Assembly (NCBI GenBank): GCA_963787375.1
Contig: CAWBCR010000013.1
Location: 101,654 to 165,653, forward strand
Origin: an uncultured Chloroflexia bacterium
GTDB taxonomy: Bacteria; Chloroflexota; Anaerolineae; Aggregatilineales; UBA3940
Reading direction: 5' to 3'
Length of the DNA: 64,000 bases
The notes under the pieces were generated by a model that worked only from the letters and a program-made list of their open reading frames with translations, was not told where the DNA came from and did not search any database. Shown here piece by piece: positions 22,599 to 42,455 of the stretch. Positions within the stretch are counted from its first letter, which is position 1. Each line of letters begins with the position of its first letter. The translations under genes were made by a program, and so were the position numbers.

Positions 22599-22702
22599 TT
22601 GTGTCCCCGCAGTTCTCTGTCTGATGTGCTGTGTGCTATGGGTTCTCGGACCCAATCCGCCTTCGGCATGCTTCTCGTGTTATGTTCTAAGCGTAAACGA
22701 AA

Positions 22703-26754: not shown

Positions 26755-27642
26755 TCACCTATTCAGCGACATGACATACGCAATCACGTCCGCGATCTGC
26801 TGGTCGCTGAGCAGCTTGCCGTCGCCAAAGGCCGGCATGACGATCATCGGCCCGTCGCCCTCCGGCGTCGAGCCGTGCTCGACAAACAGGTCGACATTGG
26901 CCGCGAAGATCTTCGGATCGGCGTTGACCAGCGTCGAGTCGATGGGATTGAGCGGCGGCACGCTGCCGTCACCGGACCCGGGGTTCGGCACTCCCTGAAC
27001 GCCCTCCGGACCGTGGCAGGCCGCACAGTACAGGCCAAACACGATCTGCCCCTGCGCCGGGTCACCGGTCAGCGAGGCAGCCGCGCCCGGCCCACCCGCG
27101 TTCGATGGCTGGGCTGGCTCCGGCGTCGGGCCGCCCGCAGGGGCCGGCGCCTCGGTTGGTTCCGGTGGCAGCGGGGTCGCCGTCGGCAGTTTCTCGACGT
27201 CCTGGAGCGTGCGCAGGTAGGCGATCACCCCGGTAATCTGGTCCGCCGTGAGCGCGCCACCGTTGGCTTGCAGCCAGGCGGGCATCTCGGTCCCGCTGCG
27301 CCCGTTGGCGATGGTGTCGTAGATTTCCTGATCGGTGCCGGTCTGGATGAACTTATTGTTGCGCAGCGCCGGCGCATCGGTACCCTCGCCGAGCGCACCG
27401 TGACACATCGTACAGTTCTTCTCGAAGATGGCCGCGCCCAGCGCGGCGGCGTCCTGCCCGGCGGCGGGCATCACGCCCGCACTGACCGCTGGCACAATCT
27501 CGGCGACCAGCGTCGGCGTCGCTGCCGGGGCCAGCGTGGGGATCGGCGTGGGGCCGGGCGGGAGCGTGGTGCTCGCGCAGGCTGCCAGCGTCAGCGCGGC
27601 CACCAGGGTGGCGACCATCATGATCCGGTTTCGTATTGGCAT
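26755..27642 (-). CDS. Diheme c-type cytochrome lipoprotein (terminal gene of the ACIII operon)
   Basis: Two CxxCH motifs (CTMCH, CAACH). Lipobox LTLAAC. The start is probably ATG 27642 after GAGGTGG; the ORF-track start is 27654. Confidence 0.75.
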   Translation of the reverse strand: MPIRNRIMMVATLVAALTLAACASTTLPPGPTPIPTLAPAATPTLVAEIVPAVSAGVMPAAGQDAAALGAAIFEKNCTMCHGALGEGTDAPALRNNKFIQTGTDQEIYDTIANGRSGTEMPAWLQANGGALTADQITGVIAYLRTLQDVEKLPTATPLPPEPTEAPAPAGGPTPEPAQPSNAGGPGAAASLTGDPAQGQIVFGLYCAACHGPEGVQGVPNPGSGDGSVPPLNPIDSTLVNADPKIFAANVDLFVEHGSTPEGDGPMIVMPAFGDGKLLSDQQIADVIAYVMSLNR

Positions 27643-27660
27643 GACCCACCTCATTCGCGT

Positions 27661-28689
27661 TTACTTCTCAAGGCTGCGGACGTAGTTGATCACGTCCCAG
27701 CGTTCGTTGACGCTCAGATTCTCGGCGAGGCTGGGCATCAGCCCCCGCCCATCGGTGATCACCTGGAAGATGTCATTGTCGGACATGGCCTTGACTGTGT
27801 CACCGGTCAGGTCAGCCGGCGGCGGTGAGAAGAACGCCGACAGCGATCCGTTGCCCTGGGCCGTGCGGCCATGGCACAGCGCGCAGTCTATACTGAACAG
27901 CACCGCGCCACGCTGGATGGAGTCCTCAGTCGCCGGGAGCGGCTCGCTGGCCGGCTGCCCGGCGATCGTTGCCGGGCCCTGCACCGGCACGGCGTCTACG
28001 GGCGCGGCGAGGCGCGGCCCCTGCTCGGCGGCGGTCGAGAACTGCTCGTCCATCTGGTTGGGCAGCTTAATGGCGATGATCCCATACGTGAACAGCAGCA
28101 CAGCAAGCGCCGGGATGAGCAGCCCCGCGATGATGATCCCCCAGCGGATGACCGGGCCGCTCACGCGGGACGGGGCCTCTTCAATGCGCTGGATGTGGTG
28201 CGATCCGTGGTCGGTGAGGGTGCTCTCCACCGCGTCAAGCTGCGTCTCGTCGACCTGTACCAGCAGGCCGATATGCCCTTCGGTGATGTGCTCGTCGTAG
28301 GCGGATCGTCCGAAGAACGGGAAGCGGCTCTCGGCCAGCAGGCCGGCAAACGTGGCGACGATAGTGCCCATCATCGTCAGCTCGAATACGATGATCAGCG
28401 ACGGCGGAATGGGGATGTATGGCTGCCCGTTGACCACCAGCGGGTATAGCAGCGGCGTGCCCACCGTCAGGAACAGTCCGGTCAGCAGGCCGCCCAACGC
28501 GCCGATCAGCGCGACGGGGACCAGCCGCTCGTACCTCACGGTGCGTCCCAGCATCGACGTGGTATACGGGATGCCGGAGATCACGCTGAGCTTGTCTTCC
28601 GGCACGCCAAGCTGCGTCTCCAGCGCGTCGATGGCGTCGGCGGTCGGCGTGGCCTCGTGGAATAAGCCGAGTATCAGGCGGTCAGACAT
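27661..28689 (-). CDS. Alternative complex III ActD (DUF3341-like) fused to a monoheme cytochrome c (ActE-like)
   Basis: 342 aa. N-terminus MSDRLILGLFHEATPTADAIDAL plus two TM segments fit ActD. The C-terminal domain has CALCH and ...GRGLMPS.... Confidence 0.75.
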   Translation of the reverse strand: MSDRLILGLFHEATPTADAIDALETQLGVPEDKLSVISGIPYTTSMLGRTVRYERLVPVALIGALGGLLTGLFLTVGTPLLYPLVVNGQPYIPIPPSLIIVFELTMMGTIVATFAGLLAESRFPFFGRSAYDEHITEGHIGLLVQVDETQLDAVESTLTDHGSHHIQRIEEAPSRVSGPVIRWGIIIAGLLIPALAVLLFTYGIIAIKLPNQMDEQFSTAAEQGPRLAAPVDAVPVQGPATIAGQPASEPLPATEDSIQRGAVLFSIDCALCHGRTAQGNGSLSAFFSPPPADLTGDTVKAMSDNDIFQVITDGRGLMPSLAENLSVNERWDVINYVRSLEK

Positions 28690-28698
28690 GGTTGCCTC

Positions 28699-30168
28699 CT
28701 ATTCCTCCGGCTCAGAGCGCGTCGGGACCAACTGCTTGCCGACACGCCGCAGGGTCTGCAGAAGCTGACCTTCCTGCACTTCCCACACCGGGATGATCGG
28801 CACGATGCGCGTCAGCAGCAGGTACAGGAAGGCCACCAGGCAGAACGCTCCGGCGGTGATAACCGCCTCCGGCCAGTGCACGATGTAGTGACCCCAGTCG
28901 AACGGCATGTAGTTGGTGCCCAGCGTCACCGCCACGATCAGGAAGCGCTCGATGTACATGCCGACCTGCACGAAAACGCATACGACCAGCAGCACCGGCA
29001 GGTTGACACGCAGCTTCTTCGACCACAGCGTTGCCCACGGAATCAGGATGTTGGAGATCAGCATCAGGAACCACAGCGGCGCAGCCGACCCCTGGGCGAA
29101 CATGTGCAGTATGGTATCTTCTACAGGCTGGCTGCCATACCACGACGTGATGTACTCGGCGAAATAGAAGTAGGTCCACGTCATCGACAACACCAGCAGG
29201 AACTTGGCCATCCCGTCGAAGTGCTCCGGGCGCAGGAAGTACTCCAGGTGCATTGCCTTGCGGATGATGATCAGCACGATGATCACCGCTGCCACGCCGG
29301 AGAACAGCGCGCCGATGACGAAGTACGGGCCGAAGATCGAGCTGTGCCAGCCGGGCTGGAGCGCCATCGCAAAGTCCCACGACACGATGGTGTGCACCGA
29401 GAACATCACCGGGATGATGACAAAGCTGAAAACGTCGAGCGCGGTCTTCTGGTGCGCCCATTCGCGCTCCGTACCACGCCAACCCAGCGCCATCGCCGTG
29501 TACAGCTTGTGCCGCCAGCCCTCGGTGTGATCGCGAGCCATTGCCAGGTCGGGCAGCGCGCCGGTATAGAAGAACACGACGCTGCCCGTCAGGTAGGTGA
29601 AGATGGCCATCATGTCCCAGATCAGCGGCGAGTGGAAGCTGGGCCAGATCTGGCGCTGGTTGAAGAACGGGATCAGCCAGTAGAACTTCCACGTACGGCC
29701 CAGGTGCACCAGCGGGAACAGCGCCGCGGTCGATAGCGCGAACAGCGTCACCGCTTCCGCCGCGCGGCTAATGGGCCGCCGCCACTCGAACTTCAGCACG
29801 CGCAGCGCCGCCGAGATGAACGTGCCGGCGTGCCCGATCCCGATGAAGTAGACGAAGTTGGTGATGTACAGCGCCCATTCGACCGGGCGGTTCAAGCCGG
29901 TGACGCCGATCCCATTGAACATCTGGTAGGTCCAGGTGGCCAGAAAAGCCAGCACGCCGCCGCCCAGCACGAAGAACAGCAGCCAGAACACCGGGCCGGA
30001 CTTTTTCATCGGCGCGAGCACTTCTTGGTTGATATCCCACGGCGGCATCGGGTCGAGCATTAGGTGCCGCTTGCGCTGATCCTCGATTTGTTCCGCCAGC
30101 GCCTCGTCTTCTGGTACGGGCTGCCGCCACAGGGGAATGTCGCTGCTAGTCTCCGACATTGGACGCAC
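28699..30168 (-). CDS. actC: Alternative complex III ActC (NrfD/PsrC-like quinol-interacting membrane subunit)
   Basis: 489 aa, about 10 TM segments, NrfD-like composition. It lies between the Fe-S subunit and ActD. The alternative start is ATG 30159. Confidence 0.8.
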   Translation of the reverse strand: MRPMSETSSDIPLWRQPVPEDEALAEQIEDQRKRHLMLDPMPPWDINQEVLAPMKKSGPVFWLLFFVLGGGVLAFLATWTYQMFNGIGVTGLNRPVEWALYITNFVYFIGIGHAGTFISAALRVLKFEWRRPISRAAEAVTLFALSTAALFPLVHLGRTWKFYWLIPFFNQRQIWPSFHSPLIWDMMAIFTYLTGSVVFFYTGALPDLAMARDHTEGWRHKLYTAMALGWRGTEREWAHQKTALDVFSFVIIPVMFSVHTIVSWDFAMALQPGWHSSIFGPYFVIGALFSGVAAVIIVLIIIRKAMHLEYFLRPEHFDGMAKFLLVLSMTWTYFYFAEYITSWYGSQPVEDTILHMFAQGSAAPLWFLMLISNILIPWATLWSKKLRVNLPVLLVVCVFVQVGMYIERFLIVAVTLGTNYMPFDWGHYIVHWPEAVITAGAFCLVAFLYLLLTRIVPIIPVWEVQEGQLLQTLRRVGKQLVPTRSEPEE

Positions 30169-30901
30169 TGCCTTTCAGATAGTAGACCGATGGCTCGGTG
30201 CCCAGCTCCTCAAGCAATCTGAACTGCCTGGGGCTTTGCCCAACCATCTTGGAGACCTTACTGTTAGGGTCGTACGTGTCGCCGAAGTTCAGCGCGCTGG
30301 TCGGACAGGCCTGCACGCACGCCGGCACGACCTCGCCGTCTTGCAGGGTATAGTTCCCGACCAGCGCCTCTTCTTCCTTGCGCCGGATGCGCTGCACACA
30401 GAACGTGCACTTCTCCATCACGCCCGCGCTGCGCACCGTCACGTCAGGATTGAGCTGCTCGGTCAGCGCCCCGTCAAACTCCGGATCGAAGAAATTGAAG
30501 AAGCGAACCTTGTACGGGCAGTTGTTGGCGCAGTAGCGGGTGCCCACGCAGCGCTGGTAGGCCTGGATGTTGAGGTGCTCGCGCTCGCTGTGGTAGGTGG
30601 CATACACCGGGCACACCGATTCGCAGGGCGCGTTGCCGCACTGCTGGCACATCACCGGCGTGAAACGCGCCTTGACGTTGGGGTATTCGCCCTCCCAGTA
30701 GCGTTCGATGCGGATCCAGTGCTGGCCACGCCCGCGCGTGACCTCCTCCTCACTGACGATCGGGACGTTGTTCTCGGCGTGGCAGGCCACCACGCACGCG
30801 CTGCACCCCGTGCACTTGTCCAGGTCGATGACCATCGTCCATTTGTGTTCCGGTAACTGCGCTTGCTGCTGAATCTCGTTGATCGGAATGACGTTTTCCA
30901 C
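30146..30901 (-). CDS. Alternative complex III ActB2-like 4Fe-4S subunit (separate gene)
   Basis: Cys clusters CTGCSACVVACH, CQQCGNAPCESVCP, CVGTRYCANNCP and CTFCVQR. The proposed GTG start at 30901 lies 10 nt after GAGAGGAG and downstream of the ActB1 stop. The longer track ORF to 31051 would overlap ActB1. Confidence 0.7.
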   Translation of the reverse strand: MENVIPINEIQQQAQLPEHKWTMVIDLDKCTGCSACVVACHAENNVPIVSEEEVTRGRGQHWIRIERYWEGEYPNVKARFTPVMCQQCGNAPCESVCPVYATYHSEREHLNIQAYQRCVGTRYCANNCPYKVRFFNFFDPEFDGALTEQLNPDVTVRSAGVMEKCTFCVQRIRRKEEEALVGNYTLQDGEVVPACVQACPTSALNFGDTYDPNSKVSKMVGQSPRQFRLLEELGTEPSVYYLKGSASNVGD

Positions 30902-30936
30902 GATGTCGCTGCTCCTCTCGCCGGCGATAGCGCGCT

Positions 30937-33135
30937 TCAGCCGTTGCGATGCTGCCACTGATAGCCTTCGTTGACGCCCGCTGTGTTCTCGAACACAGCA
31001 AGCTGGACTTTCCTGCCGGTCTTCTCGACCTTCACCCGCACGCCCGTCCAACCGCCGCTGTCTGAATGGAACGGCTGTAAGTTGACCAGGTTCAGCGGGT
31101 TCGCGCCGCGCTGCACCGCGTAGCGCCCGTAGTCGGTGTGACCCTGCCCCAGCGGCAGCGCGACCGTGTCGGGCCGGATGGCCGGGAACACGTACACCGG
31201 CGCTTCGACCTCACCGTGCGGCGAGGTGATGCGCACCACGTCGCCGGCAATCACGCCGAGGATCGCCGCCGTCTGCGGGTTCAGCTCGACCCAGGTCTGC
31301 CACGAGATGGTCGTCATTGGGTCAGGCGAGCCTTGCAGCCAGGTCTGGTTGGCCCCACGCCCGTCGCTTAGCAGGTCGGAGAGATACAGGTGCAGATAAT
31401 AGGGATACTCACCCGGATCGCCCTCGAACTGCGGCAATGGCATCTCGACCGCCGCCGGGGCTGCCGGCTGCGGGGCTGTCCCCTCGCCGGGCGAGGCCGG
31501 CCACCAGCCGCCATGCTGCCGGAAGCGCGACCACAGCACTTCCGCGCCCGATCCGCCTGCCGCGCCGGGCGGCAGCTTGGTGATCGTCTCTTTGAGGAAA
31601 GCCACCTCGTCGTTCCAGGGCAGCGCCGTCGCTACCGCCGGGATGCCGCGCGCGACGGTCAGCAGCACGTCGCCGGTTGAGCGCGCGTCGAACTGCGCCT
31701 TGACGACCGGCTGCTGGCTGCTGACGATGGCTTCGCCAAACCCCGGCGCAACGACCTCGTAGCCCCACGATTTAAGGTAGGTGCGGTCGGGCAGGATCAG
31801 GTCGGCCTGCTGCGCCGTCTCGTCGACCACCGGGCTGAAGGACACTACAAGCGGCACGCTCTTGATGGCCTCGTCGAGCCCGGCGCTGGCCGGCAGGTCG
31901 AAGATGGGGTTCGCGCCGTGCACCAGCAGCGTCTTGATCTCGCCGCCCTTCATCTTAGTGATCAGCGCCTTCACGTCCTCCAGCGAGGACGTGTCGCGCC
32001 GGACCAGCGCCGGGAGCGGCGGCAGCGGCGACAGCCGCAGCCCATCAATGCCCGCGATCACGTTCAGCGCCTGCATGGCGTTCAGCGGCTCGCTGGGCAG
32101 GTCACCGCCGCCGGCGGTGCTGCCAGGGATGGCGACCGGTTTACCGGCAGTGGCGAAGACGCGGGCCAACTCCGTCAGGTCGCTGACCGGCACGTCGATA
32201 GTCTGCGCAATCGTGTTCACGTCAACGCCGGCGGCGAGCGCTTGCGCGCGCTGCACCCGCTCGGCGGAGCCGAACGCGTTGTCGGCGATCAACTGGACGA
32301 GCGCCTGCGCGGCCAGCCCCTCAGTGCCGGGCACAATCGGCACCCACTGGTCGGCGGTGGCAGCGGTGATCGACATACGCGGCTCAAGCTGGATCAGGTA
32401 GCCGCGCTTGCCCAGCGGCTGCGTGCGGAAATCGCCCAGCTCGACGCCATAGCGTGTGGACGACAGCCACGTGCCCAGGAAGTTCGCGCCGAACGACAGG
32501 ATCACGTCGGCCTGGCTCAACTCGTAGGCCGGCAGCGCGTCCTGAGCGAACAGGGCGGCGTCGGCGCTTTGCAGCGCGTGGTAGCCATGAAAAGCGGTGT
32601 ATAGATCGTAGACGACCGGATCGGGCGCGCCGACTGCTTTGGTGAAGCGCCGGAACAGGTCGACCAGGTGGCCCGACGTCGTCGAGCCCAGCCACACGGC
32701 GAGGCTGCTACCGGCCCCGTTCACGCCGTCGTACAGCCGGTTGAGCGCCTCGTTCCATTCCAGCGGCGCAAACTGGCGGCTGCCGCGCACGTCCTGCCGG
32801 ACGGCTCCCGGCAGCCGGTCGGGGTCATACAGCACCTGCAGGCCAGCCTGCCCGCGCGCGCACAGCTTGCCCTGGTTCAGCGGGTGCTCGGGATTGCCCT
32901 CAATCTTGACCGCGCGCCCATTCATAATGCGTACCACGATCCCGCAGCCCGCCGGGCACTGTCGGCAGGTGCTGGCGTACCATGTCGCCTGGCCGGTCAC
33001 CTGTTCCTCCGGCGGCGTGACGTAGGGCTCAAGCGTCACCCAGCGGCGAGGCTGCTGGCAGCCTGCCAGGATGGTGCCGGCGGTGCCGGCGATGCCCAGC
33101 TTGATGAACCCGCGTCGTGAGATCCGTTTGGTCAT
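30937..33135 (-). CDS. Alternative complex III ActB1-like molybdopterin-oxidoreductase-family subunit, Tat-exported
   Basis: 732 aa. Twin-arginine signal MTKRISRRGFIKLGIAG. N-terminal Cys cluster CRQCPAGCG...C. MopB-family layout. Confidence 0.8.
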   Translation of the reverse strand: MTKRISRRGFIKLGIAGTAGTILAGCQQPRRWVTLEPYVTPPEEQVTGQATWYASTCRQCPAGCGIVVRIMNGRAVKIEGNPEHPLNQGKLCARGQAGLQVLYDPDRLPGAVRQDVRGSRQFAPLEWNEALNRLYDGVNGAGSSLAVWLGSTTSGHLVDLFRRFTKAVGAPDPVVYDLYTAFHGYHALQSADAALFAQDALPAYELSQADVILSFGANFLGTWLSSTRYGVELGDFRTQPLGKRGYLIQLEPRMSITAATADQWVPIVPGTEGLAAQALVQLIADNAFGSAERVQRAQALAAGVDVNTIAQTIDVPVSDLTELARVFATAGKPVAIPGSTAGGGDLPSEPLNAMQALNVIAGIDGLRLSPLPPLPALVRRDTSSLEDVKALITKMKGGEIKTLLVHGANPIFDLPASAGLDEAIKSVPLVVSFSPVVDETAQQADLILPDRTYLKSWGYEVVAPGFGEAIVSSQQPVVKAQFDARSTGDVLLTVARGIPAVATALPWNDEVAFLKETITKLPPGAAGGSGAEVLWSRFRQHGGWWPASPGEGTAPQPAAPAAVEMPLPQFEGDPGEYPYYLHLYLSDLLSDGRGANQTWLQGSPDPMTTISWQTWVELNPQTAAILGVIAGDVVRITSPHGEVEAPVYVFPAIRPDTVALPLGQGHTDYGRYAVQRGANPLNLVNLQPFHSDSGGWTGVRVKVEKTGRKVQLAVFENTAGVNEGYQWQHRNG

Positions 33136-33144
33136 GCTGGCCTC

Positions 33145-33678
33145 CTACTGGTGACAGACGATGCAGTCCATCAACTGCTGGTGGTTAGGCTGCTTCTCGT
33201 GACAGTCGAGGCACCATCCCATGTTCATGTCGACGACCTGCTGGGTGACTTCCATGTGGGCCACGTCGCCGTGGCATTGCTCACAGTTGAGGCCGCCGTT
33301 CACGACGTGCACTTCGTGGCTGAAGTAGACGTAGCGCGGCAGCGTGTAGACACGCACCCACGGGATCGGCTGCTGGTTCTGCCAGTACGCGGCCAGCTTT
33401 TGCACCTCAGTGTTGGTAGGCCTGATGACTCTGTGGCAGCCCATACACTTCTCAACGGTGGGCATACCGGCCATCGCCGAACGGGTGGCGTCGGCGTGAC
33501 AGTAAAGGCACGGCACGCCTGAGCCAACCATTGCCTTGTGGCTGAACTCAATCGGCTGCACCGGCGCTGGCGGCTGCTTAGGGGTGAGCACAAAGATCGC
33601 ACCCACCGAGACGATCAGCACCACGGCTACCCCGGCGATCCATCGCCAGATGCGAGGAATTCTTGCTAAGAGACGCAT
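33145..33678 (-). CDS. actA: Alternative complex III ActA, pentaheme c-type cytochrome
   Basis: 177 aa with an N-terminal anchor and five CxxCH motifs (CLYCH, CMGCH, CEQCH, CLDCH, CIVCH). It is the first gene of the operon. Confidence 0.8.
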   Translation of the reverse strand: MRLLARIPRIWRWIAGVAVVLIVSVGAIFVLTPKQPPAPVQPIEFSHKAMVGSGVPCLYCHADATRSAMAGMPTVEKCMGCHRVIRPTNTEVQKLAAYWQNQQPIPWVRVYTLPRYVYFSHEVHVVNGGLNCEQCHGDVAHMEVTQQVVDMNMGWCLDCHEKQPNHQQLMDCIVCHQ

Positions 33679-34882: not shown

Positions 34883-34926
34883 TTGACAGCCCGCAAATTG
34901 ATGTTATACAATACTAACGCGTGTTA
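34883..34926 (+). promoter_or_regulatory. Candidate sigma-70-type promoter (TTGACA-N18-TACAAT) with overlapping LacI-type operator TAACGCGTGTTA
   Basis: TTGACA at 34883-34888 and TACAAT at 34907-34912. The 12-bp palindrome with one mismatch at 34915-34926 sits at the expected transcription start. GCGTGTTAC is repeated directly at 34918 and 34931. Confidence 0.4.
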
Positions 34927-34971
34927 CTGTCGCGTGTTACTTGCCATTTGTTTCACAACCAGGAGCAGTTT

Positions 34972-36021
34972 TTGACAGCCAAGCGGGTGACAATGCGCCA
35001 GATCGCCGAGACGGCTGGTGTGTCACGCACAACTGTTTCCTTCGTTCTGAACAACGTGCCAGGCATCAACATCAGCGATGAAACTCGCCAGCGCATCCTC
35101 GAAACGGCACGCCAACTGAGTTACATCCCGGACTCCGCAGCGCGGAGCCTGGCCAGCGGTCGAGCGGGGGCGGTGGCGCTGGTGCTGCGCCAGAGCGCGC
35201 ACCAGGTGATCAGCGATGCCTTTCTGGCTCCGGTCGTCCAGGGCGTCGCAGCAGCAGTTAAGGATTACGGCTGTCACGTGTTGATCGAGCCGCTTGATCC
35301 AGCCGACATCAACGGGTCGTATGGCGACCTCGTCCGCAGCAGGCGCGCCGATGGTATTCTGATGTCTGGGCCCCGGCTGGATGACAGCGAGCTTGCACGC
35401 ATCGCCGCCGAGAATATCCCCGTGGTGATGATCGGCCAGCTTCCCGGCAGCAACATCCCCTTTGTCGATATCGACAACGTTCAGTGCGCGCGCACGGCCG
35501 TCGAGCACCTGCTGTCGCTGGGCCATCGACGTATCGCGTGCATCACCAACGCGGCGCTGGCCTACACCGCCAGCCGCGACCGCCTGGAAGGCTACCGGCA
35601 GGCCATCGAAGCCGCCGGCATCTCCTACACACAGTCGCTTGTCCGCTATGGCGATTTCACCGACGAAAGCGGCGAGCGGGCGATGGCCGATCTGCTTGAG
35701 CGCGCCAATCCCCGCCCTACGGCGGTCTTTGTGGCCAGCGACGTCGTCGCGCTGGGCGCGCTGAACGCCATACGCGCCGCCGGCCTGTGCATCCCTGACG
35801 ACATCGCACTGGTCGGCTTCGACGATATCCCGCTGGCCCAGTACGTCGACCCGCCGCTGACGACCATTCGACAGCCCGCATACGCCATCGGCTGGGGAGC
35901 CGGCCAGATGCTGGCTCGCCTGATCGCCGATCGCGGTGACGTACAGGACACGGCTATTCTGCTGGACACCGAGCTTGTCGTACGCAAATCATGTGGCGCA
36001 TGGCGTGATGACAGGCCGTGA
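34972..36021 (+). CDS. LacI-family transcriptional regulator
   Basis: HTH VTMRQIAETAGVSRTTVSFVLNN followed by a periplasmic-binding-protein-like effector domain. The proposed TTG start at 34972 lies 6 nt after AGGAG; the alternative ATG is at 34993. Confidence 0.8.
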   Translation: MTAKRVTMRQIAETAGVSRTTVSFVLNNVPGINISDETRQRILETARQLSYIPDSAARSLASGRAGAVALVLRQSAHQVISDAFLAPVVQGVAAAVKDYGCHVLIEPLDPADINGSYGDLVRSRRADGILMSGPRLDDSELARIAAENIPVVMIGQLPGSNIPFVDIDNVQCARTAVEHLLSLGHRRIACITNAALAYTASRDRLEGYRQAIEAAGISYTQSLVRYGDFTDESGERAMADLLERANPRPTAVFVASDVVALGALNAIRAAGLCIPDDIALVGFDDIPLAQYVDPPLTTIRQPAYAIGWGAGQMLARLIADRGDVQDTAILLDTELVVRKSCGAWRDDRP

Positions 36022-36141: not shown

Positions 36142-37458
36142 ATGAAACGCAATAAGTGGTGGCTTGCAATCAGTCTCGCACTGATCACTGCGCTGGCCCT
36201 CTCGGCCTGCGCACCGGCAACCCCTGCCGCGACTACCGCCCCCGAAGCGACGATGGCCCCCGCAACGGGTGGCATCGACTGCATGGGCGCTCAGAGCGGC
36301 GACACGATCTCAATGCTCTACCAGTGGTCGGGCACTGAAGAAGAGAATCTGAACAAGATCCTCCAGCCGCTGGTGGATGCCTGCGGCATCGTTCTGCAGC
36401 CCGAATCAACGCGTGACCAGGCCCTGCTTGACACGCGCGTTCAGGCCGGCACGCCGCCGGACATCGCCTTCTGGAATGTCACCCAGCTCACACAGTACCA
36501 GGACAAGCTGGTCGCGATGACCGACCTGGGCGTCAACGCCGCCAACTATGCCAGCTACTGGCAGACGATTGGCACGGTCAACGGCAAGTGGCTTGGCCTG
36601 CCGGTCAAGGCCGACCCCAAGACGCTGATCTGGTACAACCCGGCCAACTTCACATCAGCCGGTTATGCCGTCCCAACCACCTGGGATGAGCTGAACACGC
36701 TGGTCGAGAAGATGGTTGCCGACGGCAACGTGCCGTGGTCGATGGGCTTCGAGTCAGGTGACGCCACCGGCTGGACGGGCACGGACTTCATCCAGGATAT
36801 CCTCCTGGTGACCCAGGGCCCCGACTACGTGAACGGTATCATCGACGGCTCGGTACCCTACGATGATCCGGGCGTTAAAGCGGCGTACCAGATCTACGGC
36901 AAGTGGGCGATGGACCCGAAGTACACGGTGGGCGGCGCGCAGGGCACGCTCTCGACGGCCTTCGGTGACGCGCTCCTCCAGCCTTTCTCCGATCCGCCGC
37001 AGTCCTACATGGTCAAGCAGTCCGGCTTCGCCGGCGGCGCGATCGCGGCGCAGTACCCCGACCTGAAATACGGCACGGACTACGACTTCTTCGGCGTGCC
37101 AGGCGCGCAGGGCCTGCAGGGCGGCTCTGACTGGATGATGTCCTTCAGCGACAGCAACGCAGTGAAGGCGCTGGTCGCCTACCTGTCGAGCGATGCTGGC
37201 GGGCAGAAATGGGCTGAAGTCGGCTTCGACCTGACTCCCAACAGCGCGGGCACGAGCGCATACACCGACCCGGCGCTCCTCAAGAAGGCGCAGATCCTGG
37301 CCAACGCTCAGGGCTTCACACCTGACATCGGCGACTCCATCCCCGGCGGTTTCGGCTCAGCCGAATTCAAGGGGATCACCGACTTCGTCGGTGGCGCGGA
37401 CCTCGATACGGTCCTGGCCCAGATCGCGGCGGCTCAGAAGGCCGGTCTCGGCCAATAG
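36142..37458 (+). CDS. Sugar ABC transporter substrate-binding lipoprotein (family 1 SBP)
   Basis: 438 aa. RBS GGAGGAG. Lipobox LALSAC. Typical maltose/trehalose-type SBP composition. Confidence 0.8.
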   Translation: MKRNKWWLAISLALITALALSACAPATPAATTAPEATMAPATGGIDCMGAQSGDTISMLYQWSGTEEENLNKILQPLVDACGIVLQPESTRDQALLDTRVQAGTPPDIAFWNVTQLTQYQDKLVAMTDLGVNAANYASYWQTIGTVNGKWLGLPVKADPKTLIWYNPANFTSAGYAVPTTWDELNTLVEKMVADGNVPWSMGFESGDATGWTGTDFIQDILLVTQGPDYVNGIIDGSVPYDDPGVKAAYQIYGKWAMDPKYTVGGAQGTLSTAFGDALLQPFSDPPQSYMVKQSGFAGGAIAAQYPDLKYGTDYDFFGVPGAQGLQGGSDWMMSFSDSNAVKALVAYLSSDAGGQKWAEVGFDLTPNSAGTSAYTDPALLKKAQILANAQGFTPDIGDSIPGGFGSAEFKGITDFVGGADLDTVLAQIAAAQKAGLGQ

Positions 37459-37507: not shown

Positions 37508-37611
37508 GCTCTGATCATCGCGGGAGTTTGCCCACGAACCCCGCCCGACCCCCTGTTGAGCAGAGTGCGCCCGTTCAGCCGCCCGGCTGGCGGCGCGCGG
37601 AGGAGGAGGGT

Positions 37612-38604
37612 ATGACTGTCAAAGCGCAGGCCAAATCAGCAGCATCGAGCAGCACTGTCCCGAAAATCATGCGGCAGGGCGCGGCTGCCCCGTGGATGTA
37701 CCTCGCGCCGGCGTTGATCGTAATGGCGATGTTCATCGTCTACCCAATGCTGAACACGCTGCGCCTCAGCTTCTTGAACAAGGATGCCACTGCCTCAGCG
37801 GCCACAACCTGCGTAACCGGCAAAGCCTGCTGGGGTATCTTCGAGAACTATCATTATGCGCTGACGGCTGAGATGGACTTCAGCTCGGTTGGCTCGTTCT
37901 GGAAGACTTTCTGGCTGTCGTCATACGGCAACAACATCAAGTGGATCCTGCTGATGGTCACCGGCACCGTGGTATTCGGCCTGGTGATGGCATTGCTGGC
38001 CGACCGGGTCAAGTATGAGTCGCTGGCCAAAGCGGTGATCTTCTTGCCAATGGCGATCTCGTTCGTTGGCGCGGGGATCATCTGGAAATTCGTCTACGAC
38101 TTCGGCACAACACAGGTGCAGGTCGGGCTGCTCAACGCGATCATCACCGGGGTGGGCGGCAAACCCGTCGCCTGGCTCTCGACGACAGGGCTGAACACGC
38201 TATCGCTGATCGTCGTCGGCATCTGGATATGGACCGGCTTCTGCATGACGATCCTGTCGGCATCGCTCAAGTCTGTTCCCGGCGAGATTATCGAGGCGGC
38301 GCGTGTCGACGGCGCGAACGAGTGGCGTGTGTTCTGGAACATCACCATCCCGATCATCATGCCGACCGTTGTCGTGGTCATCACCACGATGGTCATCAAC
38401 GTCCTCAAGATATTCGACCTCGTCTACGTGATGACCGGTGGCAACTCCGGCAGCGACGTGATGGCGAACCGTATGTACACCGAGATGTACAAGAACTTCA
38501 ACACGGGGCACGGCACCGCCGTCGCAGTGGTGCTCATCGTCGTCATCGTCCCCTTCATCATCGTCAACGTGAAGCGCTTCCGTGAACAGGAGGCTATTCG
38601 ATGA
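37612..38604 (+). CDS. Sugar ABC transporter permease (MalF/ThuF-like)
   Basis: ATG 37612 after AGGAGGAGGG. Six TM segments and an EAA-type loop (EAARVDGANEWRVFWNITIP). Confidence 0.8.
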   Translation: MTVKAQAKSAASSSTVPKIMRQGAAAPWMYLAPALIVMAMFIVYPMLNTLRLSFLNKDATASAATTCVTGKACWGIFENYHYALTAEMDFSSVGSFWKTFWLSSYGNNIKWILLMVTGTVVFGLVMALLADRVKYESLAKAVIFLPMAISFVGAGIIWKFVYDFGTTQVQVGLLNAIITGVGGKPVAWLSTTGLNTLSLIVVGIWIWTGFCMTILSASLKSVPGEIIEAARVDGANEWRVFWNITIPIIMPTVVVVITTMVINVLKIFDLVYVMTGGNSGSDVMANRMYTEMYKNFNTGHGTAVAVVLIVVIVPFIIVNVKRFREQEAIR

Positions 38605-39786
38605 ACTGGGAACACATCAAGCATCAGTTCCGGCTGCTGCCGACGCACGTTGCCGTCATCCTGCTGTGCCTGATCTGGTTCATCCCGACACTGGGCCTGC
38701 TGGTGACGTCAATCCGGCCTGTCCAGGCCGTCAACACCTCCGGCTGGTGGACGGCGCTCGCCGCGCCGACCGGCAAACATGCCTACGAGGCTAACTGCGC
38801 GGCCTGCCACGGCGCGAACGGCAAAGAGCTCCCGAACGCCGATCTGACCGACCCCAACCTGATCGGGCAGTTTCCGCGGTCGACTCAGCTGCTGGCTTCG
38901 CTGAATCAGGACATTAACGGCCAGCCGCACATGGGCAGCATGGCCGTGCCTGACGTGCAAACCGCCGCCAACATCACCGTGTACCTCAAGCGCATCTCCG
39001 GCATCAGCGCCCCGCCGAAATTCACCATCAACAACTATGTCGACGCGCTGGTAGGCTATCGCGGCACCGAGACGTACTATCAGGCCTGCGCCGATGGCAG
39101 CGCGCCGAGCGACCTGAATTGCAACACTGGCGACCTGCTTAATCCGCGCGGCATGGGCCGCGCCCTGCTCAACACGCTGATCGTCACGCTCCCGGCCACT
39201 TTCCTGCCGATCCTGTTCGCGGCGTTCGCCGGTTACGCGTTCTCCTGGCTTGATTTTCCTGGCCGCCAGTGGCTGTTCGCTATCCTGGTCGGCCTGCAGG
39301 TCGTCCCGCTGCAGATGACGCTGGTCCCGATCTCGCGCCTTTATGCGCAGGTTGGGCTGAACGGCACCTTCCTGGGCGTGTGGTTATTCCATACCGGGTT
39401 CGGGATGCCGTACGCCATCTACCTGATGCGTAACTTCCTGGGTATGCTCCCGCGCGACCTGTTCGAGTTCGGCATACCTGGATGGCGCATCACACTGGAC
39501 GGCCTTCACCAAGCTCGCGATCCCGCTGGCGATGCCAGCCATCGCGTCGCTGGCCATCTTCCAGTTCCTGTGGGTGTGGAATGACCTGCTGGTCGCGCTG
39601 GTCTTCCTGGGTGGCACCAAGCCGGTGCTCACCTACCAGATCAGCAACATGGTCACGTCGCTGGGGGCAGGCTGGCAGCTTCTGACGGCTGCCGCGTTCG
39701 TCTCCTTCCTCTTGCCCATGATCGTGTTCTTCGGCCTCCAGCGCTTCTTTGTGCGCGGTCTGCTGGCCGGATCGGTCAAGGGCTAG
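38601..39786 (+). pseudogene. Sugar ABC transporter permease (MalG/ThuG-like) with a class I cytochrome c domain in the first periplasmic loop; one frame disruption as assembled
   Basis: TM1, then KHAYEANCAACHGANGKELPNADL...GQPHMGSM...TAANITVYLKRISG, with CAACH at 38796-38810. The permease core follows. After ...NFLGMLPRDLFE the sensible reading (AYLDGASHWTAFTKLAIPLAMPAIASLAIFQFLWVWNDLL...) continues in the frame of ORF 39532-39786. There is an extra T near 39466-39470. Confidence 0.75.
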
Positions 39787-39932
39787 GTCGGACATCGCTG
39801 GCGGCGCGCAGGCGCAGCCGGAAGGCTGCACGTGCGTGAAGGCCGCGCTTTCGAAGGCTACTATCGGGGATCGCGGCGGTGTGGCGTGTCATCCACGCAG
39901 CATCGCCGCGATTCAACCCGGCGAGGGGATCG

Positions 39933-41588
39933 ATGGCCTCAGCAGATGAGGTTCTGTGGTACCAGAATGCCGTTTTTTATGAGCTGTACATCCGTGCCTT
40001 TCGTGACTCAAACGGCGACGGCCATGGCGACCTGCCGGGCGTGATCGAGAAGCTCGACTACATCAAGGATCTCGGCGTCGACTGTATCTGGCTGCTGCCG
40101 TTCTATCCATCGCCGCTGCACGACGACGGCTACGACATCGCCGACTACTATGGCATTCATCCCGGCTATGGGACAATCGAGAACCTGGACAGCCTGGTGC
40201 GGGAAGCTCATTCCCGCGGTCTGCGCATCATCACCGATCTGGTCGTCAATCACACTTCCGACCGGCACCCCTGGTTCGTCGAGTCGCGCTCCTCGCGTGA
40301 CAATCCCAAGCGCGACTGGTACGTGTGGAGCGACACTGACCAGCGCTACGCCGACGCGCGCATCATCTTCCTGGACACCGAAACGTCAAACTGGACCTAC
40401 GACGAGGCGACCGAGCAATACTACTGGCACCGCTTCTATTCCTCGCAGCCCGATTTGAACTACGACAACCCGGAAGTGCAGCAGGCCATGGTCGACGTGA
40501 TGCGCTACTGGCTCGAAAAGGGTGTCGACGGCTTTCGGGTCGACGCCGTGCCCTACCTCTACGAGCGCGAAGGCACCAACTGCGAGAACCTGCCTGAGAC
40601 GCACACTTACCTCAAGGACATACGCCGCTTCCTGGCCGATCACTGGCCTGAGGGGATGATCCTGTGCGAAGCGAACCAGCTCCCTGAAGACGTTGTCTCC
40701 TACTTTGGCGACGGCGACGAATTCCAGATGGGCTTCCACTTCCCGCTGATGCCGCGCATCTTCATGGGCCTGAAGCGCGGCGTGGGAACTCCCATCCGCG
40801 AGATCATGGAGCGCACCCCGGCCATCCCGCATGGCTGCCAGTGGTGCATTTTCCTGCGCAATCATGACGAGCTGACGCTGGAGATGGTCACCGAGGAAGA
40901 GCGCCAGTGGATGTGGCAGCAGTACGCGCCCGACCCCCGCATGCGGCTCAACCTGGGCATTCGCCGCCAACTCGCGCCGCTGCTCGACAACCGCTACGAG
41001 CGGATCGTGCTGGCTAACCGCATCCTGTTCTCGCTGCCCGGCGCGCCGATCATCTATTACGGCGACGAGATTGGCATGGGCGACAACATCCAGCTCTTCG
41101 ACCGCAACGGGGAGCGCACGCCGATGCAGTGGGACAGCTCGCCCAACGCCGGGTTCTCGCGTGCGGCGGCTGACAAGCTGTACGCGCCGGTCATCGACGA
41201 CAACACGTATGGCTACCGCACGGTCAACGTGGCCGCCCAGCGTGGGGACCCCGGCTCGCTGTATAACCAGATGCGCGCGCTAATCGAGACCCGCAAGCAG
41301 CACCCCGTCTTTGCTAGCGGCCTGCTGCATTTCCTCGACGCAGGCAGCGAGAAGGTGCTGGTCTACTTCCGCTCCGACGACGACGAGACGATCCTGGTCG
41401 TGCACAACCTGTCCGAATCGCACCAGACGGTGCGACTGGACCTGTCCGGCTTTGCCGGCAGCGTGCCGCTCGACCTGCTGGAGCCCGACGCCTCATTCCC
41501 AGAGGTGGGCGAGCAGCCCTACCGGCTGCGCCTGGCCTCCTCGCAGAGCCACTGGCTGCTGCTGCGCGGCCCGCAGCAAGGCGAATAG
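39933..41588 (+). CDS. treS: Trehalose synthase / maltose alpha-D-glucosyltransferase (GH13)
   Basis: Start MASADEVLWYQNAVFYELYIRAFRDSNGDGHGDLPGVIEKLDYIKDLGVDCIWLLPFYPSPLHDDGYDIADYY. GH13 catalytic segments GFRVDAV, EANQ and LRNHDELT. Confidence 0.8.
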   Translation: MASADEVLWYQNAVFYELYIRAFRDSNGDGHGDLPGVIEKLDYIKDLGVDCIWLLPFYPSPLHDDGYDIADYYGIHPGYGTIENLDSLVREAHSRGLRIITDLVVNHTSDRHPWFVESRSSRDNPKRDWYVWSDTDQRYADARIIFLDTETSNWTYDEATEQYYWHRFYSSQPDLNYDNPEVQQAMVDVMRYWLEKGVDGFRVDAVPYLYEREGTNCENLPETHTYLKDIRRFLADHWPEGMILCEANQLPEDVVSYFGDGDEFQMGFHFPLMPRIFMGLKRGVGTPIREIMERTPAIPHGCQWCIFLRNHDELTLEMVTEEERQWMWQQYAPDPRMRLNLGIRRQLAPLLDNRYERIVLANRILFSLPGAPIIYYGDEIGMGDNIQLFDRNGERTPMQWDSSPNAGFSRAAADKLYAPVIDDNTYGYRTVNVAAQRGDPGSLYNQMRALIETRKQHPVFASGLLHFLDAGSEKVLVYFRSDDDETILVVHNLSESHQTVRLDLSGFAGSVPLDLLEPDASFPEVGEQPYRLRLASSQSHWLLLRGPQQGE

Positions 41589-41660: not shown

Positions 41661-42455
41661 CTATTTTGTCACGAAACCCGCGACTGTCAACTGGCCGTTC
41701 TCGGCGGTGATCTCCGTCAGCGTGACCTGCGTTTCGCTTTGCGCGCTGGCCCCGGTGATGGCTGCCGTCAGCCCATCGGAGATCGCGGCCAGCATCAGCT
41801 CAGGCATATCAACCGTCTCCACCGTGGCACTGTCGACGGTCAGCACGAGCTTACTGTTGTCGTCAACGGTCGGCACGAACGCTGCGCTGGCATGGACCCC
41901 CACCGAGCTCACCATCACGATAAACGCCATTGATATCTTGCCGTCGGCCAGGGTTACGTTGAGGTCGGTTATGCTGGCACCGGACGTGGTTCGGGCGAGC
42001 GCCGCCGTGACGCCAGCCTCGATCGCCGCCTCGGCGGTCGCCTCGTCTGTCGTAATCATGAAAGGCATGCCCGGCGCAAGCGCCCGCGCCTGCGTCCAGG
42101 CAGTGTCCATCGCGTCGGCGCTGCCCAGCGCCTCAATAGCAACCGGCGTCGCGTCGGCAGCGCTGGCCTCGGTCGCGGCCTCGGCGGCAGTGGGTTCAGT
42201 GGCACTGGCTTCGGTGGCGCTGGGCTCGGCGGCGGCCTCGGTCGGCGTTTCAGCCGGCGCACGTGTGGGGAAAGCGAATGCGCCTGCCGGCTGCTTGTAG
42301 ACGGTTGGGGTCGGGTAGATGGTCACCTGCGCCTCGTTTACGCCGCCGGTCTGTGGTCCGGCTGGCTGCGATCCACCGCTTGTTCCGCCGCCGCAGGCGA
42401 CCAGCAGCGCAAGCGCCACGACGCCGCTCAAAATCAAAACCTGCTGTCTCCTCAT
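41661..42455 (-). CDS. Hypothetical secreted lipoprotein
   Basis: RBS GGAGGAG. Lipobox LLVACGG, an Ala/Glu/Thr-rich linker and a C-terminal beta-rich domain of unknown family. Confidence 0.6.
   Translation of the reverse strand: MRRQQVLILSGVVALALLVACGGGTSGGSQPAGPQTGGVNEAQVTIYPTPTVYKQPAGAFAFPTRAPAETPTEAAAEPSATEASATEPTAAEAATEASAADATPVAIEALGSADAMDTAWTQARALAPGMPFMITTDEATAEAAIEAGVTAALARTTSGASITDLNVTLADGKISMAFIVMVSSVGVHASAAFVPTVDDNSKLVLTVDSATVETVDMPELMLAAISDGLTAAITGASAQSETQVTLTEITAENGQLTVAGFVTK

Follow-up and report, generated by a model that had tools for sequence, protein, structure and literature searches.

Sugar transporter operon and the second permease

The window, by which we mean the whole stretch of DNA that was analysed (64,000 nucleotides), holds a sugar-transport gene cluster downstream of an ACIII operon. 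The following genes and features were located:

26755–33678: ACIII operon encoding multi-heme subunits (1.2 kb upstream of the sugar cluster)
34921–36021, plus strand: LacI-family repressor, first gene of the cluster (Pfam LacI and Peripla_BP_3/1/4)
36142–37458, plus strand: substrate-binding lipoprotein (SBP) of a CUT1-type sugar ABC importer, with the lipobox LSAC (weak NCBIfam matches to GlcS and NgcE)
37528–38604, plus strand: first permease, MalF/SugA/AglF-type (PF00528, 67.6 bits; NCBIfam GlcT/UgpA/MalF-like)
38601–39786, plus strand: second permease, MalG/SugB/AglG-type, bearing the predicted cytochrome c insertion (PF00528 and fold matches)
39468–39469, plus strand: single-base insertion (TT for T), which shifts the frame inside the EAA/coupling-helix motif of the second permease
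39879–41588, plus strand: TreS, trehalose synthase/maltose alpha-D-glucosyltransferase (TIGR02456)

Searches against Pfam and NCBIfam confirmed the operon as the set of LacI repressor, SBP, two permeases and TreS that had been proposed from the sequence. TreS scored 841.5 bits against the equivalog TIGR02456, the cut-off of which is 678.35, and the stop codon of the first permease overlaps the start codon of the second in an ATGA at 38601–38604. A Pfam scan of the SBP at 36142–37458 gave no match; its orthologs, at 66–82% identity, occupy the same place in related loci. Synteny of the SBP and the partner permease was observed in nearly all of 80 related loci, most related loci have a LacI homolog 5' of the SBP, and TreS follows the heme permease in about 48 of the 80. 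The substrate of the importer is probably trehalose, maltose or another alpha-glucoside; JGI names the orthologs of the heme permease 'alpha-glucoside transport system permease'. The lack of an ATPase gene in the window, which had likewise been pointed out, agrees with a motif search in which neither Walker A (GxSGxGKST) nor LSGGQ was found in any frame of the 64 kb. CUT1 systems often use a shared ATPase encoded elsewhere, so that the missing gene is compatible with membership in an ABC importer. In many loci a gene of about 600 aa lies between the permease and TreS. It was considered as a conserved redox partner and rejected, as it has no redox motif; judged by eye, it seems to resemble (alpha/alpha)6-barrel glycosidases, and at the P0127 locus a PfkB kinase takes its place.

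With the frame repaired as described below, the second permease matched PF00528 (BPD_transp_1) at residues 205–386 (E 5.8e-14; 52.7 bits versus a cut-off of 26.4). The best match of the full permease model in a Foldseek search of the PDB was 8hps_B (SugB of LpqY-SugABC, E 3.7e-7), followed by MalG (3rlf_G and 2r6g_G, probability 1.00). Like MalG of the E. coli MalFGK2 complex, SugB and AglG, the frame-repaired protein is a type I importer subunit (PF00528) with six TM helices and, in the repaired frame only, an EAA coupling helix; as in those systems, its operon also encodes an SBP and a MalF-like partner, beside a trehalose/maltose enzyme. From the homology to MalG and SugB we infer an N-in orientation of TM1. 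The AlphaFold model of the permease shows low pLDDT over its final ~60 residues. Intact homologs (119 aligned) are 370–420 aa long, mostly 394 aa, and 72–79% identical.

A frameshift had been suspected near 39466–39470, and the analysis confirmed it: an additional T at 39468/39469 (GAG-T-TCG) causes the frame to stop at 39584, and removal of one T at this position yields a 394-aa protein that ends at 39786. The EAA coupling helix (EAAxxDGAxxxxxFxxIxLP), ESAYLDGASHWTAFTKLAIPLAMP, is readable only after this deletion and is disrupted as assembled. A DNA alignment revealed that the extra T is missing from a 97% identical metagenomic contig (L081), which encodes an intact 394-aa protein (P0121). 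The copy in the window is an assembly artefact or else a dead gene; the former is more likely than a true pseudogene. In the latter case the transporter would be inactive in the source organism, as could be suggested by the position of the extra T, which truncates the protein within the coupling helix with loss of TM5–TM6, and by the public database record for the contig, which is the 327-aa product (P0086). An exact search with that product retrieved no recorded contig. We regard a genuine pseudogene as rather unlikely, given the intact population variant at 97% identity and the frame past the extra T, which is still perfectly conserved and carries no more damage. The neighbouring genes of the operon are intact as well, and related MAG assemblies contain split genes too (Perm1 in L026 and TreS in L060), as is typical of assembly indel errors. 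ActB1/ActB2 was also considered, as a second frameshift indicative of poor assembly, and was rejected because ActB2 has its own RBS and a GTG start.

Predicted cytochrome c domain in the P1 loop

The P1 loop of MalG is short and cofactor-free. Unlike the solved MalG/SugB homologs, which comprise 257–293 residues, the second permease has about 115 extra residues in P1, in which a predicted heme c domain is followed by a loop with a pair of Cys residues. The features of this region are:

38643–38711, plus strand: TM1, approximately residues 15–37 (AlphaFold helix 3–37; positive charges on the N-terminal side)
38763–39002, plus strand: predicted class I c-type cytochrome domain, residues 55–134, about 80 in all (HMMs, AlphaFold, Foldseek and profile search)
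38796–38810, plus strand: CxxCH heme-attachment motif with C66, C69 and H70, invariant in relatives, the two middle residues being variable among them
38928–38933, plus strand: His110-Met111, with His110 as probable distal heme ligand (from conservation)
39033–39140, plus strand: second clade-specific loop insertion, with Cys163 (39087–39089) and Cys174 (39120–39122) (alignment A1)

The original prediction placed a small c-type cytochrome in the TM1–TM2 loop of a MalG-type permease, and HMMs, structure prediction, fold search and orthologs all agree with it. The peptide quoted at the time is present in the frame assigned to it, with residues 59–134 at 38775–39002 as compared to a claimed range of 38772–39006, and the CxxCH motif lies exactly at 38796–38810, where it reads CAACH. 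Both Pfam profiles suggested for a check scored above their curated cut-offs on the repaired permease, PF13442 with 30.3 bits (cut-off 27, E 5e-7) and PF00034 with 25.2 bits (cut-off 21.3). The loop alone reached 33.8 bits against PF13442, and this profile matched 42 of the 42 family loops tested; the P0127-like subfamily, at 16.9 bits, falls under the cut-off. For the region between TM1 and the permease core, AlphaFold predicted a cytochrome c fold with a confidence of about 90 (pLDDT 88–94 throughout the domain). The best 50 Foldseek matches of the domain in the PDB are all c-type cytochromes, with probabilities of up to 0.99 and target-normalised TM scores of 0.5–0.64; the E-values are weak (0.045 at best) and the match list is uniform. 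A profile search with the domain retrieved CcoP (E 6e-6) and TtX183A (E 5e-4). The domain resembles PF13442-type cytochromes (CcoP, c6/c-552/c-553 and the c-domain of cd1 nitrite reductase) in that its CxxCH lies close to the N-terminal helix, its core is made up of three helices, its C-terminal helix contains a conserved Tyr and its predicted location is extracytoplasmic. Unlike these cytochromes, the domain is set between two transporter TM helices and an invariant His replaces Met-Pro.

Loss of CxxCH in close orthologs, which had been named as speaking against a cytochrome, was not seen: the motif was kept in 120 of 120, 82 of 82 and 109 of 109 relatives (311/311), down to 53% identity. A His 40 residues past H70 is present in 120/120 and 82/82 relatives, and 109/109 have one between +37 and +44. 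The adjacent Met111 had been proposed as the sixth ligand. This assignment did not hold, since Met gives way to Leu or Ile in 19 of the 82 species, and in the deeper subfamily 93 of 103 members have Ile, Val or Leu here; neither Met111 nor M114 is conserved, and both were rejected as a universal sixth ligand. With His110 invariant and Met111 variable, conservation points to His/His ligation (H70 and H110) as more likely than His/Met. The host's own carrier cytochromes show the canonical Met-Pro ligand motif, which is absent from the heme permeases, where P-H-(M/L/I/V) is found instead. Further conserved hallmarks of class I cytochromes are Gly71, Gly74, Pro117, Tyr128 in the C-terminal helix and, four positions ahead of the first Cys, an aromatic residue (Y62), which is Tyr or Phe in 120/120.

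C163 and C174 are both invariant in alignment A1, and the insertion that carries them occurs in each of the three heme-bearing subclades and is missing from non-heme relatives. The cytochrome domain never occurs without the Cys-pair insertion. By homology to MalG and SugB, whose P1 loop is periplasmic, the predicted cytochrome domain is assigned to the extracytoplasmic side; the conserved Cys pair fits an oxidising outside compartment. We consider it very likely that the protein is a MalG/SugB/AglG-type subunit of an SBP-dependent sugar importer with a complete mono-heme class I cytochrome c domain and a two-Cys loop in P1.

As for other cytochromes c of the host, the ACIII operon in the window encodes penta-, mono- and di-heme c subunits. 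A recent copy of the domain from these ACIII cytochromes was considered and rejected, because BLAST similarity is limited to about 22 residues around CxxCH. The WWD motif of CcsA/CcmF was not found within the 64-kb window.

Spread and origin of the fusion

A survey of MalG/ThuG homologs and of the spread of the insertion, as the original prediction had proposed, located it in at least 245 species-level genomes and in thousands of metagenomic sequences. Wherever examined the hosts belong to the Chloroflexota (80 of 80 genomes, mostly named as lineages of the class Anaerolineae), 165 weaker genome matches lying outside the set from which the taxonomy was taken. Anaerolineae-type Chloroflexota are abundant in sludge, sediments and soils, where they have a carbohydrate-based lifestyle across oxic-anoxic gradients. 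Cultivated hosts are Pelolinea submarina (MO-CFX1, locus L049) and, from a separate protein search, Aggregatilinea lenta (P0296). Pelolinea and Bellilinea are among the genomes with the fusion, and both are strictly anaerobic fermenters according to the species descriptions. The fusion is found together with respiratory complexes, as in the window, and also in lineages described as strict fermenters.

In a neighbor-joining tree calculated from TM1 (residues 15–50) and the permease core (186–394), with loop insertions excluded and without bootstrap support, all heme-bearing permeases form one clade, which suggests that the cytochrome domain was probably inserted once. Sequence comparison strongly supports that purifying selection has maintained the domain across Chloroflexota, mostly in Anaerolineae lineages. 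The site itself is an insertion hot spot: short relatives run from SGWW directly into (F/W)TxxNY, and others bear unrelated inserts. That the loop might be a common non-heme insertion was considered and rejected, as the inserts of the relatives are non-homologous and the whole heme clade keeps CxxCH.

Possible role of the heme in sugar import

Upon Sec insertion, the loop would be placed outside the cytoplasmic membrane, where C66 and C69 would receive a covalent heme from the cytochrome c maturation machinery. H70 would then be the proximal and H110 most likely the distal ligand of a low-spin bis-His heme. The P1 loop of MalG is important for the docking of MalE (PMC6906923), and since it helps to dock the binding protein, the heme domain would probably be found at the docking surface. 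Oxidation of the heme or a change in its ligation, possibly relayed via the Cys pair, may alter SBP docking or the coupling between TM1 and TM2, and sugar import would thereby be tuned to the external redox or O2 state. To this explanation as a whole, a heme-bearing importer with redox tuning, we assign a probability of about 40%. Its functional part, the heme domain as a redox-responsive module that tunes import at the SBP-docking surface, is proposed tentatively and by analogy. More doubtful is the stricter version, also drawn by analogy, of a redox- or gas-gated importer of filamentous Anaerolineae in which the bis-His heme and a dithiol/disulfide pair would form an extracellular switch for trehalose/maltose-type uptake.

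ABC importers are textbook machines, and to our knowledge their known regulation targets the cytoplasmic ATPase, for example by EIIAGlc on MalK, by regulatory C-terminal domains or by the Fe-S clusters of Dpp/Opp. If the redox-tuning explanation is true, an external heme on the membrane subunit would be a different control point, at which the transporter itself reads redox state or oxygen outside, and redox gating would be a mode of regulation that is not known to have been described for any ABC importer. A redox-active cofactor in a type I ABC importer has a precedent in the [4Fe-4S] clusters on DppD/DppF, oxidation of which destabilises the complex (PMC12136057). Unlike the predicted heme, the Dpp/Opp cofactor is cytoplasmic, bound to the NBD and of the iron-sulfur type. 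In MalF, too, a loop of a type I importer's membrane subunit contains a large folded domain outside the cytoplasm: the P2 loop is an Ig-like periplasmic insertion that touches the binding protein (PMC6906923). In contrast to the heme permease, MalF P2 belongs to the other subunit, has a different fold, is cofactor-free and has no redox potential.

Another parallel is provided by the c-heme sensors of chemoreceptors and kinases, among them the periplasmic DcrA of Desulfovibrio. In GSU0582 and GSU0935 of Geobacter the c-type heme sensor lies in an extracytoplasmic loop flanked by two TM helices (PMC3460858, PMC8396549), and Cache_heme is an extracytoplasmic domain with covalent c-type heme that senses redox state or gases (PMC12889525). 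The heme permease shares with these sensors a covalent heme, predicted here, between two TM helices. Their folds are PAS or Cache and their signalling is cytoplasmic, unlike the heme permease, where the domain is a class I cytochrome and any output would be transport activity; neither a PAS nor a Cache fold was found for this domain, and the likeness is functional and topological only. It counts against a sensor that known c-heme sensor domains are PAS/Cache and that proteins of the class I fold usually carry electrons.

Of the alternatives to redox tuning, the one that survives best assumes that the heme is a folding cofactor and the cytochrome fold a rigid SBP platform similar to MalF P2, with no redox regulation. 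The MalG P1 loop touches MalE, and the inserts of relatives at the same site are unrelated and cofactor-free (60–250 residues, with Ig-like repeats in P0169), which suggests that the site tolerates or needs bulk, not chemistry. Docking would also be in line with L001 and L004, where the heme-permease operon is duplicated and each copy pairs its own diverged SBP with a diverged heme domain. However, covalent heme requires a dedicated maturation system and would make a costly scaffold, and the two axial-ligand candidates and the Cys pair are invariant over class-level divergence, which speaks for functional chemistry. A purely structural domain is an unlikely explanation in our estimate.

Still less probable is that the permease is a mere anchor for a domain that carries electrons, be it in respiration, in an extracellular redox process or to a sugar-oxidising enzyme. 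Class I is the classic electron-carrier fold, the ACIII operon lies 1.2 kb upstream in the window, and single-membrane Chloroflexota, a hypothesis cited in PMC4653792, would need anchored small c-type cytochromes. X183 class I cytochrome domains on carbohydrate-active proteins give electrons to LPMOs (PMC8981238, PMC10916295). CjX183 and TtX183A resemble the domain of the heme permease as small class I cytochrome domains within a carbohydrate-utilisation protein, and TtX183A (8q1v) is both a fold match and the profile match at E 5e-4 mentioned above; unlike the heme permease, X183 domains are part of secreted multi-domain proteins that reduce LPMOs, with no transporter context. The internal loop of a LacI-controlled sugar permease would, however, be an odd anchor, and no conserved oxidoreductase or partner cytochrome was found beside the operon in the 80 related loci, nor was the ACIII neighbour seen at other related loci. 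Furthermore, the Met-Pro of the host's carriers is replaced, and the fusion is retained in lineages described as strict fermenters. Since it occurs in hosts with respiratory complexes as well as in those described as fermenters, a role intrinsic to the transporter fits better than one in a single respiratory pathway.

Finally, a degenerate cytochrome-like relic, or a thiol- or metal-binding loop that keeps a CxxCH-like motif, is very improbable: the Pfam scores exceed the cut-offs by just a few bits and those of the P0127-like subfamily lie under them, but C, C and H are invariant in all 311 relatives, and so are the distal His, the aromatic at −4, the glycines and the Tyr of the C-terminal helix, a pattern that fits heme pockets and not relics, the fold is predicted with confidence, and other c-type cytochromes are made by the host.

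Within the limited collection of literature searched, no description of a fusion between a cytochrome c and an ABC permease was found, consistent with the earlier remark that such a protein was not known to be described; PMC9012536, considered as a prior report, concerns CcmC and not a sugar permease. The two cultivated hosts, Pelolinea submarina and Aggregatilinea lenta, make the fusion directly testable. The family is also a case for annotation, as the heme domain of one subfamily escapes routine Pfam searches and all members are named just 'ABC transporter permease'.

Identity and reading frame of the heme permease

The permease gene extends over 38601-39786 (+ strand), and the following features were located in it:

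38601-39584, + strand: heme-permease open reading frame as assembled, reading as quoted in the original prediction
38775-39002, + strand: segment quoted in that prediction, residues 59-134 (translation of the window)
38796-38810, + strand: CAACH, residues 66-70 (translation of the window)

The CxxCH motif was thus found where it had been placed. The frame is broken at GAG-TT-CGG. Removal of one T at 39468/39469 lets it continue to 39786, giving a protein of 394 aa with a canonical EAA region, ESAYLDGASHWTAFTKLAIPLAMP. The public record for the contig is the truncated 327-aa product (P0086); P0121, an intact protein of 394 aa, shares its 90% cluster, and the DNA encoding P0121 (L081), 97% identical to the window here, is without exactly that T. 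The frameshift suspected near 39466-39470 is therefore real in the assembly and reflects an assembly indel or, alternatively, a lesion of very recent date; the permease family itself is intact. Apparent frameshift-split genes also occur in related MAG assemblies, affecting Perm1 in L026 (6936-7881) and TreS in L060 (9185-10766), an indication that data of this type often contain indel errors.

In the repaired protein, PF00528 matched residues 205-386 (52.7 bits) and PF13442 residues 55-128 (30.3 bits, cut-off 27); PF00034 matched with 25.2 bits (cut-off 21.3). In the full-length AlphaFold model, TM1 is followed by a helical domain predicted well (residues 55-135, pLDDT 81-90), after which come the permease helices. 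Among solved structures the model matched best E. coli MalG and the SugB subunit of LpqY-SugABC, the trehalose importer of mycobacteria; at 257-293 residues these chains are too short for such a domain. When the loop was modelled alone, the cytochrome part reached pLDDT 88-94, and all 50 best PDB matches were c-type cytochromes, with probabilities up to 0.99 and weak E-values (0.045 or worse); they included the c-domain of cd1 nitrite reductase, c6, c-552, c-553 and TtX183A. The sequence profile of the loop matched CcoP (E 6e-6) and TtX183A (E 5e-4). Pfam, AlphaFold and the all-cytochrome PDB matches together establish the identity of both parts, the MalG-type permease and the predicted class I cytochrome c domain within it.

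Taxonomic spread and heme ligation

Thousands of relatives were found in a large protein collection. Its best 120 matches consist of the truncated product and 119 homologs that are 72-79% identical, in most cases 394 aa long, and encoded in MAGs of Anaerolineales and other Chloroflexota; JGI names them 'alpha-glucoside transport system permease'. With one genome scanned per species, the loop was encoded in 245 genomes, the best 80 of which were all Chloroflexota, most labelled as Anaerolineae lineages (among them Anaerolineales, Promineifilaceae, Ardenticatenaceae, Thermoflexales, Bellilinea and the cultivated Pelolinea submarina). When the representative that diverges most (P0127, 59% identical) served as query in another search, a further subfamily of 398-407 aa was recovered, to which the cultivated Aggregatilinea lenta belongs; the permease is thus directly testable in two cultivated species. 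The cytochrome domain of this subfamily (P0127, P0276-P0383) lies below the Pfam thresholds and goes unannotated by routine Pfam, a heme domain hidden from annotation pipelines. The fusion is also found among lineages that have been described as strict anaerobes living by fermentation. Respiration is encoded by many 'anaerobic' Anaerolineae (PMC4653796, PMC4653793) and is missing from some (PMC4653792).

No ortholog had lost the CxxCH motif. Exactly one copy, with variable middle residues, was present in 120/120 best matches, and the motif was kept in 82/82 loop copies at the loci of the best 80 genomes and in 109/109 sequences of the P0127 subfamily. In the alignment of close homologs C66, C69, H70, G74, L82, S94, H110, P117 and A123 are invariant and Y62 (Y or F), G71 and Y128 nearly so, which by sequence is a heme-pocket pattern.

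The host would itself mature c-type cytochromes, judging from the complete operon for an alternative complex III (ACIII) in the window:

26755-33678, - strand: ACIII-like operon, complete
33145-33678, - strand: ActA, penta-heme
30937-33135, - strand: ActB1, molybdopterin-like
about 30146-30902, - strand: ActB2, 4Fe-4S, encoded separately, with an RBS and a GTG start of its own
28699-30168, - strand: ActC, NrfD-like
27661-28689, - strand: ActD-cytochrome c fusion
26755-27654, - strand: di-heme cytochrome c

The ACIII-associated cytochromes have a canonical Met-Pro motif, whereas the permease domain reads P-H-(M/L/I/V). Met had been proposed as sixth ligand, which did not hold as a universal assignment: Met111 is conserved in 105/120 close homologs and 63/82 species copies, and in only 10/103 members of the deeper subfamily, the position being otherwise L, I or V. 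The preceding His110 is invariant. The distal His follows the proximal His by exactly 40 residues in 120/120, 82/82 and 103/109 sequences of the three sets and lies within a few residues of this in the remaining six; in the P0127 subfamily it is invariant, in the motif H-(I/V/L)-P-E. As His110 is the sole universal candidate, bis-His ligation with His110 as putative distal ligand is favoured. A hand alignment to cytochrome c6 would place Met111 on the ligand Met; a role for Met in some members, or a His/Met switch, is thus conceivable.

Origin of the insertion

In a library of representatives clustered at 50% identity, P0127 and five fragments were the only ones of the 150 best matches to carry CxxCH. 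The alignment revealed a conserved frame of TM1, PTxGLxxxSxR...SGWW, a variable segment, (F/W)TxxNY and the core. Between SGWW and (F/W)TxxNY, short relatives (about 300 aa) lack any insert and others hold unrelated ones, at most about 250 residues long and in some cases Ig-like, while the heme clade keeps the cytochrome domain, which answers the homolog survey suggested with the original prediction. The AglG-like permeases P0130, P0139, P0142, P0169 and others hold unrelated inserts there, in which no confident Pfam domain was found, P0169 giving only sub-threshold Ig/cadherin-like matches. By sequence, this loop position is a hot spot for insertions.

The heme clade has a second insert after NYxD with two invariant cysteines. 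This pair accompanies the heme domain in 3/3 heme-bearing subclades (main clade, L001/L004 paralog, P0127 group) and is absent from the heme-less paralog in L071. A neighbour-joining tree, calculated without bootstrap support from residues 15-50 (TM1) and 186-394 (permease core) and thus without the loop insertions, united all heme-bearing proteins in a single clade that has non-heme sisters. The pattern points to one insertion, with vertical descent and duplication thereafter. The diverged heme-bearing permease of about 406 aa in L001 (2649-3887) and L004 (2613-3851) has CASCH, GQ(A/P)HL and a Cys pair of its own, and its C-terminal helix region is longer. It belongs to a second copy of the SBP-permease-permease cluster, located immediately upstream of the main one; some genomes therefore carry two heme-permease systems.

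Operon context and possible function

Domain matches and a motif scan agreed with the operon as predicted: a LacI repressor, a substrate-binding lipoprotein (SBP), a MalF-like permease whose stop overlaps the heme-permease start, the heme permease and a true trehalose synthase (TreS; TIGR02456, 841 bits), with no ABC ATPase motif anywhere in the 64-kb window. This order is conserved across the related Chloroflexota loci. Some have an extra gene of about 600 aa between heme permease and TreS, by eye resembling an (alpha/alpha)6-type glycosidase, and at the P0127 locus a PfkB sugar kinase takes the place of TreS.

Full-text literature searches gave no description of an ABC permease with a cytochrome c domain, consistent with the initial view that heme on a carbohydrate importer subunit is undescribed, and the database names of the heme permeases are all generic. 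Cytochrome domain and permease are each well known; their combination is not. We infer, tentatively and with a probability of about 0.35-0.4, that the heme domain is a module at the surface where the SBP docks and would respond there to redox state or ligand. This ranking draws on the conserved context, on the first extracytoplasmic loop (P1) of MalG, important for MalE docking in the maltose system (PMC6906923), and on precedents among sensors and ABC importers. Covalent c-hemes are known in extracytoplasmic segments between two TM helices of sensors (PMC3460858, PMC8396549, PMC12889525). The known redox cofactors of ABC importers sit on cytoplasmic ATPases (PMC12136057), whereas the heme-permease domain is predicted to be extracytoplasmic. 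A purely structural docking domain, placed lower on the same grounds, is rather unlikely. A tethered electron carrier is more doubtful still; no conserved oxidoreductase or partner cytochrome was found near the operon in the related Chloroflexota loci. That no heme is bound at all seems very improbable.

The SBP (36142-37458, + strand) matched no Pfam family at E <= 1 and carbohydrate-SBP families of NCBIfam only weakly (27-32 bits); it is 66-82% identical to its orthologs across the related loci and appears to represent a divergent SBP family. TreS is followed directly, on the other strand (41661-42455, -), by an Ala/Thr/Glu-rich protein of 264 aa that has a lipoprotein-like N-terminal signal (VACGG) and matched no Pfam family. 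Two very large secreted proteins, of 1794 aa (12255-17639, +) and 1068 aa (19449-22655, -), each combine a Peptidase_C25 (gingipain-like) domain with many SdrD_B/Ig/cadherin-like/PKD repeats.
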